Assembly (NCBI RefSeq): GCF_013122565.1
Contig: NZ_CP053258.1
DNA: 64,000 nucleotides
Reading direction: 5' to 3' (one strand)
Source: Escherichia coli
Lineage (GTDB): Bacteria > Pseudomonadota > Gammaproteobacteria > Enterobacterales > Enterobacteriaceae
Under the pieces are notes generated by a model. That model was not told the origin of the DNA. It ran no database searches and worked only from the letters and a program-made list of their open reading frames with translations. Shown here piece after piece: positions 52,434 to 56,767 of the stretch; the stretch's first letter is position 1, and the number at the start of each line of letters is the position of its first letter. Position numbers and translations under genes: made by a program.

Positions 52434-52506
52434 AAAAAGGCCACTCGTGAGTGGCCAAAATTTCATCTCTGAATTCAGGGATGATGATAACAAATGCGCG
52501 TCTTTC
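52434..52506 (-). ncRNA. micA: MicA (SraD) Hfq-dependent sRNA, antisense in the gshA-luxS gap
   Basis: Minus-strand sequence GAAAGACGCGCATTTGTTATCATCATCCCTGAATTCAGAGATGAAATTTTGGCCACTCACGAGTGGCCTTTTT matches MicA as I recall it, including the terminator hairpin and U-tail. Confidence 0.9.
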
Positions 52507-52574: not shown

Positions 52575-53090
52575 ATGCCGTTGTTAGATAGCTTCACAGT
52601 CGATCATACCCGGATGGAAGCGCCTGCAGTTCGGGTGGCGAAAACAATGAACACCCCGCATGGCGACGCAATCACCGTGTTCGATCTGCGCTTCTGCGTG
52701 CCGAACAAAGAAGTGATGCCAGAAAGAGGGATCCATACCCTGGAGCACCTGTTTGCTGGTTTTATGCGTAACCATCTTAACGGTAATGGTGTAGAGATTA
52801 TCGATATCTCGCCAATGGGCTGCCGCACCGGTTTTTATATGAGTCTGATTGGTACGCCAGATGAGCAGCGTGTCGCTGATGCCTGGAAAGCGGCAATGGA
52901 AGACGTGCTGAAAGTGCAGGATCAGAATCAGATCCCGGAACTGAACGTCTACCAGTGTGGCACTTACCAGATGCACTCGTTGCAGGAAGCGCAGGATATT
53001 GCGCGTAGCATTCTGGAACGTGACGTGCGCATCAACAGCAACGAAGAACTGGCGCTGCCGAAAGAAAAGTTGCAGGAACTGCACATTTAG
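52575..53090 (+). CDS. luxS: S-ribosylhomocysteine lyase LuxS (AI-2 synthase)
   Basis: 171-aa ORF ([14 protein letters not shown]) with HTLEH metal motif. Confidence 0.96.
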
Positions 53091-53107
53091 TCAGTGGAAC
53101 AAAAGAA

Positions 53108-53140
53108 GCCGGGCAGGTGACACCACCGCCCGGTTTTTTT
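53108..53140. terminator. Bidirectional intrinsic terminator shared by luxS (+) and the HD-Pnk gene (-): GCCGGGC..GCCCGG plus T7
   Basis: Hairpin and T-tract read in sequence; the HD-Pnk stop codon overlaps the T-tract. Confidence 0.75.
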
Positions 53141-54251
53141 ACCTTTCAATCACCCGATACTCCACGCTATGTGCTTCATCAGGTTGAGGAACTTCCAGCC
53201 TTGAGGCCATCCGCAGCACGACCGCTTCAGGAACTGCATACTCGCGTCTGGCATTTTGCTGCTTCCATTGCGTCCATGGCACTTCCAGATAAACGATTTT
53301 TACTCGTGCGCCGTAAGCCGTAAACAGACTGATGAGCTGGCTACGCAGCTGGCGGGTAATGTTCGTTGCATTCCAGATGAACGGCTTTTTCTGGCGTAAA
53401 AAAACGCGTGCCTCTTCTTTTGCCTGTTGCACAATACGCCCGGTGGCGGTTTTGTCGTCCGGACTGGCATTGATTCGCCGCCGCATATCATCAAGGCTGA
53501 TAACGTCAATTCCCTGGCACTGTTCACTGATATAGCGATCTTTGCCCATACCCGGTAAGCCACACAGCAAAATAACCTCAAAAGGTTCAGCCCCCCAGGG
53601 AACAAAATCAGGAGAACTTTGCTCATGAGTCAGGTAGTGCCAGCGTGCGGAATCAGAAACGAACGGGCGCACTTTTCCCCAACACTGTTGCTCCTGGCAA
53701 AACAGCTCGAACAGATCGATGCGTTCCAGCATTGATTGCTGATCCGGGCTTTGGCGACCAAGCAGATCGGCACGAGCAAGCAAAGCGAGCAGACGCGTGT
53801 CGATGCGCATTGCAGCCGTGAGCAGCAAACGCTCCGGTTCCGGACGTTCCAGTAACCACAGCGGTAACCCATGCAGACGCACCAGCGCAACAATTTGCTC
53901 GCGTAGCACGAACGGCGTAGGGATATCGCGCCATAAAATTTGTCGGGCCGTCAATTCGCCCCGCCGAGCATGGCCAGGCGACTGAATACGTCCGTTTTCC
54001 TGCACGGTAGTGCTGCGCTTTTCAACATCATGCAATAACGCCGCCGCCCATAAAACTTCCTGCTGTTGAGCGGGGAGTTGCTGGAATTCTGGCAGAGTAA
54101 CGAGGGCGTTCAGCACCATTTCGGTATGCACGCCGACGTCGCCTTCACCATGATGCTCCGGGTCTTGTGGCGTGTGATGCATCTCCTCAACCCAACTGAA
54201 ACGCTGGAGTAGTGTCGACCAGCGTTTATCGTCGGTAAGCTGCCAAATCAT
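53139..54251 (-). CDS. Bifunctional RNA/DNA end-healing enzyme candidate: N-terminal HD-domain phosphoesterase fused to a C-terminal P-loop polynucleotide 5'-OH kinase (HD-Pnk type)
   Basis: 370-aa ORF; HD motifs ([18 protein letters not shown], later His/Asp); Walker A GLPGMGKD followed by an acidic DVISLDD segment; ATGA overlap with the upstream ligase gene; absent from the K-12 luxS-emrB junction as I recall it. Confidence 0.75.
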
Positions 54252-54955
54252 GACTGTTCTCCATAAGCGAACTCATGGGCCATCCGCGCCCGTTGCCAGT
54301 GTCGTTTCCAGTGCACGGTGGTTTTGACATGATTTTTGCGCACATACTTGAAGACGTTATGCGAAAAGTCAGCGACGGAAAACGCATCACGATTCCGGCT
54401 GACAATGCCTTCCAGCGTACAGGGTTGCCCGGTTTGTGTATCCCAGGGATCGAACGCGCCGCGCGCATTGGTCAGTGCCAGAAAATCACGTTGCCAGCTT
54501 TTTTCATCATTCCCCGGCTGCGGACCGGAGATTTCGGGAACGCAGGGGAAATCAAACAGAGCGGCGTAAAACTGCACCTCTTCCCAGCTCAGCCACATAT
54601 CCTGGCAGCGAACGGCAAACAGGTAAAAGTCCTGTTCCAGCGCGCGGTATTCAATGGAATGAACGGCGTAGAGATTTTCACCAAACAGTTCCAGATCGCC
54701 GAGATCGTTTTTCAGCAGTTGCCAACGCTGGCGAATTTTATAAGTCCATGCCGACTGCGTAGGCGCAGCATGGGAACGGGCAAACACGCCGTAGCGGTTA
54801 AGGCAGTTATTTTCGCCGTCGAGTTTTTCTGTGTGCACCAGTTGCGCAATGGCCTGTAAATCCTGCCAGTAATCGGCGTTAATGCGGTCATCGCTGGTGG
54901 TGCCAGGGGAGAAAGGATAATGCCAGGTTCTCCCGTATTTTCGTTGGGTATTCAT
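54248..54955 (-). CDS. ATP-dependent RNA ligase-like covalent nucleotidyltransferase (small Rnl-type)
   Basis: 235-aa ORF with motif I KLDG (Lys44), FGEN motif III-like, EGIV motif IV, FKYVRK motif V; stop overlaps the HD-Pnk start. Confidence 0.75.
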
Positions 54956-55176
54956 AATAATCCATTATTTTGTGTGTAATAAATGTACGCCCGCGAGGGT
55001 GCGAGTTATGGGGTTAAAAGAAAAATGTGAGTATCACCCGCGAAAGCGAGGGCGAAGGAAAAAGAGAATTAACAACCTGAGCGAATGCTCAGAACCGGTT
55101 AATGGTGAATGGAAGAGTTTGGGGCGGCGAAAAGATACACCGAATGAGTGGATAAAACAACCGTTTGCAGAATGAG

Positions 55177-55202
55177 CAAATAAAAAGGGAGCCGAAGCTC
55201 CC
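55177..55202 (-). terminator. Intrinsic terminator of emrB (GGGAGC-TTCG-GCTCCC hairpin plus T-rich tail on the minus strand)
   Basis: Hairpin 10 nt downstream of the emrB stop. Confidence 0.75.
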
Positions 55203-55212
55203 TTTGACAACC

Positions 55213-56751
55213 TTAGTGCGCACCGCCTCCGCCGCCACCTGCGCCAAAGGGCGGTTTAGCAAACCACACCAGCCCCAGCAGGACGAGGAATATCCCGGCT
55301 GACATCCAGAAGATCTCATTGGCGGAAATAATCAGCCCCTGGTTAGTGATCTGCTGGGCAATCCAGCCTGATGCCTGCTGTTGCGTCATCCCAAGCCCTT
55401 CCAGTTGACTATACATCGCCTGGGCATTCGGGTTGAACGGGTTTACCGACTCAGTCAACTGCGCATGGTGCATCGACTCGCGGTTGGTCCACATGGTAGT
55501 GGTTATCGATGTGCCGATAGACCCCGCCAGCGTTCGCGTAAAGTTGGAGAGGCTCGATGCCGCCGCCAGTCGTTCCGGTGGCAAACCAGACAGCGTAATG
55601 GTGGTCAGCGGCATAAAGAAGCAGGCCACCGCAAACCCCTGGATAAACTGCGGCCATGCCGACGCGCCAAAATCCATACCTGGTTCAAAGGTATAGGCAC
55701 GCCAGTAGAAGCAGACGGCATACATAATAAAGCTGAAGGTTACCAGCCGCCGCATATCCAGTTTATGCGCGAAGCGGCCGATAATTGGCGACAGGATCAC
55801 CGGAATAATCCCTACCGGCGCAGAGGCCAAACCTGCCCAGGTCGCCGTGTAACCGTAGACCTCCTGCAACAACTGCGGCAGCAGAACAATAGCGCCGAAG
55901 TAGAGCATATACGCGAGGCTGATACACAAGCAGCCGATGGTGAAGTTGCGCGACTTAAACAACGACAGATCGACTATCGGGTTATCGTCGGTCAGCTCCC
56001 AGACAATCAGGAAGCAGATAGCCACCACCGCCACCACGGTAAGGATGATAATTTCCTGTGATGAAAACCAGTCCAGCTCTTTACCGCGGTCGAGCATAAT
56101 CTGCAGGCTGCCGATACCAATAACCAGCAGTGCCAGCCCCACGGCATCAATTCGCCGCCGTTCGGTGCGGGTTTCACGTCCGCGCAGAGTTTGCAGTGTC
56201 ATCAACACCACCGCCACGCCAATCGGCACGTTGATGAAGAATATCCAGCCCCAGTGGTAATTATCGCTGATATATCCGCCGAGGATTGGGCCGCAAATTG
56301 GCGCGACAATCACCGTCATCGACCACAACGCCAGCGCGATTGAGCGTTTGGCTGGCGGGTAATTATTCAGCAATAGACTTTGCGAAAGCGGGATCAACGG
56401 CCCGGCGACAATCCCCTGAATCACGCGGAAGAAGATCAGCATATTCAGGCTGCTGGAGACACCACACGCCCACGACGCAATAGCAAAGGCGATGGTTGAC
56501 CAGAGGAACAGTTTCACTTCCCCGACGCGCTTTGCCAGCCAGCCGGTAAGCGGGATCGAGATGGCATTCGCCACCCCGAAAGAAGTGATTACCCACGTTC
56601 CCTGGCTGAGCGATGAGCCCAGATTCCCGGCGATAGTGGGGATCGCCACGTTAGCAATGGTGGAGTCCAGCACCTGCATGAATGTCGCCAGTGACAGCGC
56701 AATCGTCATAATGACCAGTTGCGCGCCTTCCAGCGGTTTTTGCTGTTGCAT
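55213..56751 (-). CDS. emrB: Multidrug efflux MFS transporter EmrB (start MQQQKPLEG)
   Basis: 512-aa 14-TM MFS ORF; 16-nt gap after emrA. Confidence 0.94.
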   Translation of the reverse strand: MQQQKPLEGAQLVIMTIALSLATFMQVLDSTIANVAIPTIAGNLGSSLSQGTWVITSFGVANAISIPLTGWLAKRVGEVKLFLWSTIAFAIASWACGVSSSLNMLIFFRVIQGIVAGPLIPLSQSLLLNNYPPAKRSIALALWSMTVIVAPICGPILGGYISDNYHWGWIFFINVPIGVAVVLMTLQTLRGRETRTERRRIDAVGLALLVIGIGSLQIMLDRGKELDWFSSQEIIILTVVAVVAICFLIVWELTDDNPIVDLSLFKSRNFTIGCLCISLAYMLYFGAIVLLPQLLQEVYGYTATWAGLASAPVGIIPVILSPIIGRFAHKLDMRRLVTFSFIMYAVCFYWRAYTFEPGMDFGASAWPQFIQGFAVACFFMPLTTITLSGLPPERLAAASSLSNFTRTLAGSIGTSITTTMWTNRESMHHAQLTESVNPFNPNAQAMYSQLEGLGMTQQQASGWIAQQITNQGLIISANEIFWMSAGIFLVLLGLVWFAKPPFGAGGGGGGAH

Positions 56752-56767
56752 CACACGCACCTCTGGA

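Follow-up and report, generated by a model that had tools for sequence, protein, structure and literature searches.

The stretch of Escherichia coli DNA analysed here (64 000 nt, referred to as the window) carries a ligase/HD-Pnk RNA-repair gene pair between luxS and emrB. The genes are arranged in the order gshA, MicA, luxS (plus), then the HD-Pnk gene, the ligase gene, a gap and emrB (minus). The gap, at positions 54956–55212, comprises 257 non-coding nucleotides between emrB and the repair pair. The small RNA MicA occupies its usual place between gshA and luxS (52435–52506, minus strand; Rfam RF00078, 83.9 bits). The coordinates of the features discussed below are collected in table 1.

The RNA-repair island

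The product of the first gene is named 'RNA ligase family protein' in RefSeq. Its ATG lies at 54955–54953 on the minus strand, and its stop shares a 4-nt overlap with the HD-Pnk ORF. The HD-Pnk protein matches AAA_33 (E 6.7e-31), with the AAA_33/Pnkp kinase at residues 226–355, and it also matches structures of the C. thermocellum Pnkp kinase domain; residues 16–105 give weak matches to the HD regions of HDIG and CCA enzymes. On the basis of these domains and of the ORF overlap, the two predicted enzymes constitute a Runella-type HD-Pnk/ligase cassette. Such pairs form a widespread RNA-repair cassette that is defined biochemically (PMC6097658), and roughly one in five complete E. coli genomes has it.

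The spacer between luxS and emrB in strain K-12 is only 63 bp long, contains a different terminator and lacks the cassette; the segment 53096–55211 (2.1 kb), inside which the entire gap lies, thus constitutes an island. Of 5426 complete E. coli genomes, 999 (approx. 18%) have it, always on the chromosome, and it is 95–99% identical within the species. Its carriers include IHE3034 (neonatal meningitis), ABU 83972, EPEC E2348/69, ST131 and O145:H28 strains. In RefSeq, the near-identical E. coli loci have the same gene limits and zero features annotated inside the gap. A search of plasmids and phages recovered no copy of the island, the two 'plasmid' matches being 4-Mb Proteus records, and neither flanking repeats nor mobility genes were seen at 53096–55211. 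On the luxS side, the island is closed by a predicted bidirectional terminator, a hairpin with U tracts on each side (table 1).

In E. coli strain C325 (NZ_CP124819.1, 4647253–4650687), the island match is split into two pieces. Annotated there are a transposase of the IS3 family and two features named 'RNA ligase family protein', and the ligase gene appears to be disrupted by an IS3 insertion.

Table 1. Genes and sequence elements of the luxS–emrB region, in window coordinates.
Feature	Position	Strand	Characteristics
luxS	52575–53090	plus	
luxS/cassette hairpin	53109–53133	both	U tracts each side; dG −18.9 kcal/mol, z −3.3
HD-Pnk-type end-healing gene	53139–54251	minus	370 aa; N-terminal HD region, C-terminal P-loop kinase
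Ligase gene, first of cassette	54248–54955	minus	235 aa; PF09414 RNA_ligase, E 3.6e-28
Ribosome-binding/start block AATAATGGATTATTATGAAT	54969–54950	minus	GGA Shine-Dalgarno-like core 6 nt before ATG
Distal leader/spacer (approx. 100 nt)	54970–55060	minus	42–66% identity to relatives; near third-codon-position level
U-rich tail UUGUUAAUUCUCUUU	55075–55061	minus	Directly 3′ of stem-loop; GUUGUU conserved
Leader stem-loop UCUGAGC-AUUC-GCUCAGG	55093–55076	minus	7 bp; terminator-like in scan
Perfect palindrome AACCGGTT	55100–55093	minus	CCGGT invariant; directly upstream of stem-loop
Conserved box CTTCCATTCAC	55115–55105	minus	Identical in 9/12 aligned sequences
GC-rich block CGCCGCCCC	55129–55121	minus	CCGCCCC nearly invariant; spans predicted transcription start
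Predicted −10 hexamer TATCTT	55137–55132	minus	TAT..T invariant; TATTAT or TATTCT in more distant relatives
Predicted −35 hexamer TTGTTT	55160–55155	minus	TTG invariant; TTGCAA in Superficieibacter and Enterobacter sp.
emrB intrinsic terminator (predicted)	55175–55205	minus	9-bp stem AAAGGGAGC/GCUCCCUUU, UUCG loop (55205–55184), then UUUUUAUUU (55183–55175)
emrB	55213–56760	minus	Stop codon at 55213–55215

Conserved architecture of the gap

A scan of one genome per species yielded 80 loci encoding the ligase, with the HD-Pnk gene immediately downstream in all of them. At least 100 nt of non-coding sequence precede the ligase gene in 73 of the 80; in the other seven the distance is only 35–84 nt, directly behind rtcB, with prfH between the two in at least five cases. 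Full-length alignment of the upstream region with the window was obtained for eleven Enterobacteriaceae loci. The aligned loci come from Escherichia, Klebsiella spallanzanii, Kosakonia, three Phytobacter, a metagenome-assembled genome, Enterobacter sp. and two Superficieibacter. The covariation figures for the gap refer to this alignment of 12 Enterobacteriaceae sequences.

The alignment divides the gap into five parts: the emrB terminator, the promoter, a 5′ module, a spacer and a ribosome-binding block. The 97 nt from the promoter through the U tail are 75–82% identical to Klebsiella, Kosakonia and Phytobacter, and in the same comparison the identity is 80% for the ligase coding sequence and 55–61% for the ligase third codon positions. 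This pattern indicates that the promoter-proximal 97 nt are under selection and are more than chance spacer. Two GC-rich local hairpins can be drawn in the distal leader, at 55054–55035 (dG −10.5 kcal/mol) and 55003–54988 (−6.6 kcal/mol); the former is retained in only 68% of alignment cells.

The initial annotation placed an untranslated gap between the ligase start and the emrB terminator hairpin (55205–55184), with correct coordinates. It also described the gap as having no minus-strand ORF, which is not literally the case, although the ORF that exists does not code. Mechanical translation gives a 58-codon TTG ORF at 55210–55034 (minus) and a 67-codon GTG ORF at 54972–55175 (plus), both of which traverse the terminator, the promoter and the hairpin. 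In relatives, both frames are broken by indels of 1 nt and 13–19 nt, so neither is coding. Coding potential was likewise rejected for the TTG/GTG mini-ORFs of the leader, whose ends fall in different frames in different species.

The emrB terminator has a dG of −14.8 kcal/mol (z −3.9) and a U tract of the form U5AU3. Its helix is paired in 96% of cells, with compensatory changes at three pairs across the 12 Enterobacteriaceae sequences. A GC-rich stem-loop followed by a U tract is what characterizes an intrinsic terminator, and we class the element as one by prediction. Being strong, it would stop emrAB transcription at 55205–55175 and insulate the cassette from emrRAB.

No clear sigma-70 promoter had been recognized by eye in the initial annotation, and a sigma-70 consensus scan of the gap with a threshold of 9/12 found none either. 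A conserved candidate with 7/12 consensus matches nevertheless lies behind the terminator; the standard scan missed it because of this low number of consensus bases. In a position-weight scan, this −35/−10 pair is top-ranked in 11 of the 12 sequences and falls in the same alignment column, and the spacer between the hexamers is 17 nt in every aligned sequence. In Superficieibacter, the match rises to 9/12 (TTGCAA-17-TATTAT). The separation is within the 16–18 bp of sigma-70 promoters, and the pair therefore qualifies, by its sequence, as a candidate promoter.

Transcription usually starts 6–9 nt downstream of the −10 hexamer. The GC-rich block follows the −10 hexamer at this usual distance, which leads us to predict a start at about G55125 (±3) and a leader of approximately 170 nt. 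A weak sigma-70-type promoter about 20 nt beyond the terminator would thus start the transcript near G55125. The expectation of the initial annotation that the gap holds the cassette promoter and regulatory signals fits the conserved −35/−10 pair, the leader and the ribosome-binding block found behind the terminator, the promoter and start remaining predictions. A literature search on island-carrying strains found no transcript 5′-end, Term-seq or expression data.

The first 65 nt or so of the predicted transcript would form the conserved module, composed of the CUUCCAUUCAC box, AACCGGUU, the 7-bp stem-loop and the U-rich tail. The conserved box has the variants TTTCCGTTCA in Superficieibacter and TTTCCCACTCA in Enterobacter sp. 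The leader stem-loop is paired in 98.8% of cells, shows compensatory changes at three of its seven pairs and is predicted independently by RNAalifold. Together with an outer AUUAAC/GUUAAU helix, it has a dG of −12.7 kcal/mol (z −4.25 relative to shuffled sequences). The loop varies from 4 to 6 nt between the aligned sequences, which argues for an RNA element rather than a DNA site of fixed spacing.

The first 8 nt of the tail include five U in the window, four in Klebsiella and six in Phytobacter, Enterobacter sp. and Superficieibacter. With its interrupted U tail (UUGUUAAU), the stem-loop may terminate transcription weakly or not at all. A stem-loop with a U tail between a predicted promoter and the first gene has the layout of an attenuator. 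RNAalifold and single-sequence folds gave no conserved alternative antiterminator helix; with no alternative pairing identified, any attenuation would proceed without a visible switch. No leader peptide or conserved small ORF was found in the leader, since reading frames differ between species, and no ligand-binding fold was identified in it. The module is most likely a leaky intrinsic terminator (attenuator) or an element of RNA stability or processing, either of which would limit the transcript entering the genes.

Three further pairings were considered and rejected. UCCAUU (55113–55108), within the conserved box, is complementary to AAUGGA of the ribosome-binding block, so that the ribosome-binding site could be sequestered. 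The pairing is kept in 91.7% of cells, but with zero double changes, and its duplex energy is no better than that of shuffles (z +0.9); sequestration remains only a weak idea. A long-range CCGC:GCGG helix proposed by RNAalifold has four pairs and weak support. Mimicry of, or pairing with, 16S/23S rRNA was considered for CAAACUCUUCCAUU (55121–55108, minus), which is complementary to 16S nt 2–15 at 13 of 14 bases. This complementarity was matched by 14 of 200 shuffles (p approx. 0.07), and the complementary part varies in relatives.

The almost invariant ribosome-binding block carries AATAAT/ATTATT inverted arms, with the consensus AATAATGGATTAT(T/C)ATGAAT. It is 86–95% identical in seven of eight relatives, including both Superficieibacter (90%), and 62% identical in Enterobacter sp.; it is locally unstructured (dG −1 kcal/mol). 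An out-of-frame ATG at 54965–54963 (minus), 10 nt upstream of the ligase start, lies inside the block AATAATGGATTAT; it is ACG in Phytobacter massiliensis and hence probably not a start codon. After the poorly constrained spacer of about 100 nt, this open A/U-rich block would start translation of the ligase, to which HD-Pnk translation would be coupled through the 4-nt overlap.

Control of the cassette and alternative readings

We interpret the gap as the cassette's own control region, with a dedicated promoter insulated from emrB and a leader of approximately 170 nt in which the stem-loop would serve attenuation or transcript stability; we assign this reading a probability of about 0.6. Sequence comparison shows the conservation pattern, the covariation of the two hairpins, the structure of the island and the lack of sites for known regulators; that the promoter is active, where transcription starts, attenuation and any inducer are what we infer here. 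The control region is ordinary in kind, but this particular one has not been described before. Its practical value is that it provides exact sites to mutate: the predicted promoter, start, stem-loop and ribosome-binding block turn the question of induction into a few point-mutant and reporter experiments.

It is unlikely that the cassette lacks a dedicated promoter and owes all its expression to read-through from emrRAB, the operon controlled by EmrR, the conserved sequences being terminator flanks or RNA-processing signals. The cassette is indeed co-oriented with emrB and lies 257 nt behind it, an emrB-sized ORF upstream and luxS downstream are found in most of the aligned Enterobacteriaceae (e.g. 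Klebsiella spallanzanii), and the candidate promoter is weak. Against this, compensatory changes preserve a strong emrB terminator, and the −35/−10 pair keeps an exact spacing and invariant key bases and comes nearer to the consensus in other genera. In addition, many distant loci have upstream genes that are unrelated or divergent, and yet the long leader is kept.

The module could instead be a separate gene for a trans-acting small RNA of about 55–65 nt (from approx. 55125 to approx. 55065), with the cassette mRNA as a read-through product, which we regard as quite unlikely. Such a gene would account for the far better conservation of the module relative to the remaining leader, and for the covarying hairpin and U-rich tail at its end, which are terminator-like in the scan. 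The module is, however, found only with the cassette, both being absent together from K-12-type genomes, and no second copy of it was found in E. coli genomes. The position-weight scan of the 12 sequences detected no other conserved promoter between the leader hairpin and the ligase gene. Nor does the module match an Rfam small-RNA family: in the Rfam 15 search only MicA passes, outside the gap, and the best scores inside the gap are 17–19 bits (E > 3).

Two of the conserved elements are perfect or near-perfect palindromes present in nearly all aligned sequences, AACCGGTT at about +26 to +33 and AATAAT-GG-ATTATT at the start codon, the latter being unable to form an RNA hairpin because its loop would have only 2 nt. 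They might accordingly be read as DNA operators for a transcription factor, an explanation that we consider improbable: no regulator gene is annotated as travelling with the island, no known factor's consensus matches above chance, and the neighbouring stem-loop, with a loop of variable length and compensatory changes in its stem, points to RNA. That the gap is mostly non-functional spacer left by insertion of the island, its conservation reflecting recent common descent, agrees with the near-neutral rate of its distal half and with the 95–99% identity of everything within E. coli, but is highly improbable given that the proximal module and the ribosome-binding block exceed third-codon-position identity across five or more genera and that two hairpins show compensatory substitutions.

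For the dedicated control region, searches of the gap for known regulator sites gave no indication of its inducer. Consensus searches for sigma-54, sigma-32, sigma-E, Fur, CRP and LexA returned nothing better than shuffled sequence; the routes of induction suggested in the initial annotation (SOS, stress, phage infection) thus have no recognizable signature in the gap. The best full-box match to the LexA box (CTGT-N8-ACAG) has nine mismatches. CTGAGCATTCGCTCAG was examined as a LexA box and rejected, only its CTG/CAG ends matching and the match being no better than that of 204 of 300 shuffles. Nor does the CTG-N10-CAG of the stem-loop represent a LexA site: between species the spacing varies, and the sequence covaries as RNA.

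Relation to other leaders and known systems

The genomic context of distant relatives offers another indication. In five Serratia loci (L014, L015, L016, L017 and L019) and in Bacteroides L080, the pair is located 35–84 nt behind rtcB-prfH, forming a four-gene rtcB-prfH-ligase-HD-Pnk cluster (2218–5816 in L014, from Serratia sp. H1w, and 1824–5804 in L080). PrfH in these clusters is a 205-aa RF-1-domain protein. In Bacteroides L074, the pair lies 65 nt directly behind rtcB. RtcB2-PrfH rescues and repairs ribosomes damaged by colicin E3 (PMC9223846, PMC9304027). By gene order, this adjacency links the cassette to the RtcB2-PrfH ribosome-repair system and, given the role of that system, it makes damage to the translation machinery (e.g. 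by colicin E3-type toxins) the first condition to test.

The rtcB2 leaders of Serratia, K-12 (ykfJ), Kosakonia and Pragia start, by eye, like the leader of the window: a −10 box is followed by a GC-rich block and by a TTCCA(T/C)TCAC-like box. In K-12, a 24-nt segment of the rtcB2 leader resembles the window leader, a resemblance matched by 1 of 500 shuffles. In nhmmer searches, the window leader gave nothing significant against the rtcB2-prfH leaders (best E 0.37, at one Serratia site) and no match in a 3.5-kb target set. With no significant similarity in these profile searches, ancestry or regulation shared with the rtcB2-prfH leaders is only a lead. The two kinds of leader also differ, the rtcB2 leaders having a strong Shine-Dalgarno sequence and a conserved small ORF of 14–16 codons, both of which the window leader lacks.

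Every rtcB2-prfH leader examined contains an AAGGAGG Shine-Dalgarno sequence followed by this 14–16-codon small ORF, which has a conserved core (e.g. MTNPLSMTLCRPFQD, MTQHALISLCRPFQD, MNYQALFTLCGSYPQA, MQQLEISTLCRRIQG and MMTITMTLFRPARS). The ORF is located at 940–987 in L084 (K-12, NC_000913.3, approx. 253239–253286), at approximately 1751–1798 in L087, 1746–1793 in L086, 1756–1800 in L085 and 2098–2148 in L014. It is unannotated in the K-12 record and unmentioned in PMC9223846 and PMC9304027.

A different element is found further away. Of 61 distant loci (L020–L082), 49 carry the motif [A/T]TGTAAT or ATGTGA between 60 and 250 nt ahead of the ligase gene (e.g. at about 3910 in L035, 3913 in L040 and 3914 in L081), compared with 5% of control windows. 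The motif can be read as a start codon with a stop codon immediately behind it, AUG-UAA-U, with the variants UUG-UAA and AUG-UGA, and is not in Rfam. In Bacteroidota, it is complementary to the region of the true start codon. In Chitinophaga, Mucilaginibacter and Pedobacter, GCCAUGU pairs with ACAUGGC at the start codon (RNAalifold), with a compensatory change in Pedobacter; in Chryseolinea-type loci, Prevotella and Dysgonomonas, the partner of the motif is the stretch immediately before the start codon (duplex z −2.4 to −4.3). Neither the window nor any other Enterobacteriaceae leader contains the ATGTAAT-type motif, and profile searches did not link the two types of leader.

More generally, profile searches detected no relation of the Enterobacteriaceae leader to those of Bacteroidota or to other distant leaders, including Xenorhabdus and Providencia, and no homologue of the window leader was detectable outside Enterobacteriaceae. 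Homology does connect the Xenorhabdus leaders with those of Providencia (E 1e-9 to 1e-5). By eye, the Xenorhabdus, Providencia and Chitinophaga leaders also seem to contain a hairpin followed by a U run.

The Pedo-repair RNA (Rfam RF01715) is a conserved motif near repair-type genes in Pedobacter. In the table of PMC2864571, it figures only as a Pedobacter candidate. Identity of the leader with this motif was rejected, since the window, the Pedobacter locus L081 and 16 further loci all lack an Rfam match to it. Rfam searches that covered the gap, 17 related loci and the Pedobacter leader yielded MicA and no other family.

Taken together, the position of the pair behind rtcB-prfH in Serratia and in one of two Bacteroides loci, the small ORF of the rtcB2-prfH leaders and the start-stop-like motif of distant loci, with its pairing to the true start codon in Bacteroidota, are the basis of a broader but doubtful idea, namely that ligase/HD-Pnk leaders are cis-acting sensors of damage to the translation machinery, the Escherichia leader being a lineage-specific version that would tie expression of the cassette to the state of the ribosome and is possibly co-regulated with rtcB2-prfH. 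A ribosome lingering on the start-stop element would free a downstream start site or alter termination; the equivalent role in the window would fall to the CUUCCAUUCAC box together with the stem-loop. Inside the window, what speaks for such a sensor is a set of weak similarities.

Among known systems, rtcBA is likewise a bacterial operon of RNA end healing and sealing in which induction is the key question. The rtcBA operon has a sigma-54 promoter, activated by RtcR. Compared with it, the Escherichia gap has no sigma-54 −24/−12 element, the best match to TGGCAC-N5-TTGCW having four mismatches and being equalled by all shuffles, and no gene for an RtcR-like enhancer-binding activator is annotated next to the island.

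The closest parallel in gene content is the cluster of Runella slithyformis, in which a spacer of 152 nt precedes the ligase ORF and the latter overlaps the HD-Pnk ORF (Munir & Shuman 2017, as cited through PMC6097658). As presented in PMC6097658, it has the same gene pair and layout as the Escherichia island; it adds Tpt1 and a methyltransferase-HIT gene, whereas the island consists of the pair alone.

With regard to the leader itself, the nearest analogues of the proposed control region are enterobacterial attenuators and short RNAs derived from 5′ UTRs. The window leader differs from those attenuators in that no leader peptide, antiterminator helix, Rfam riboswitch or known protein-binding motif was found in it. 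It resembles both groups in carrying a promoter-proximal GC stem with a U-rich tail, maintained by compensatory changes, within a long 5′ UTR.
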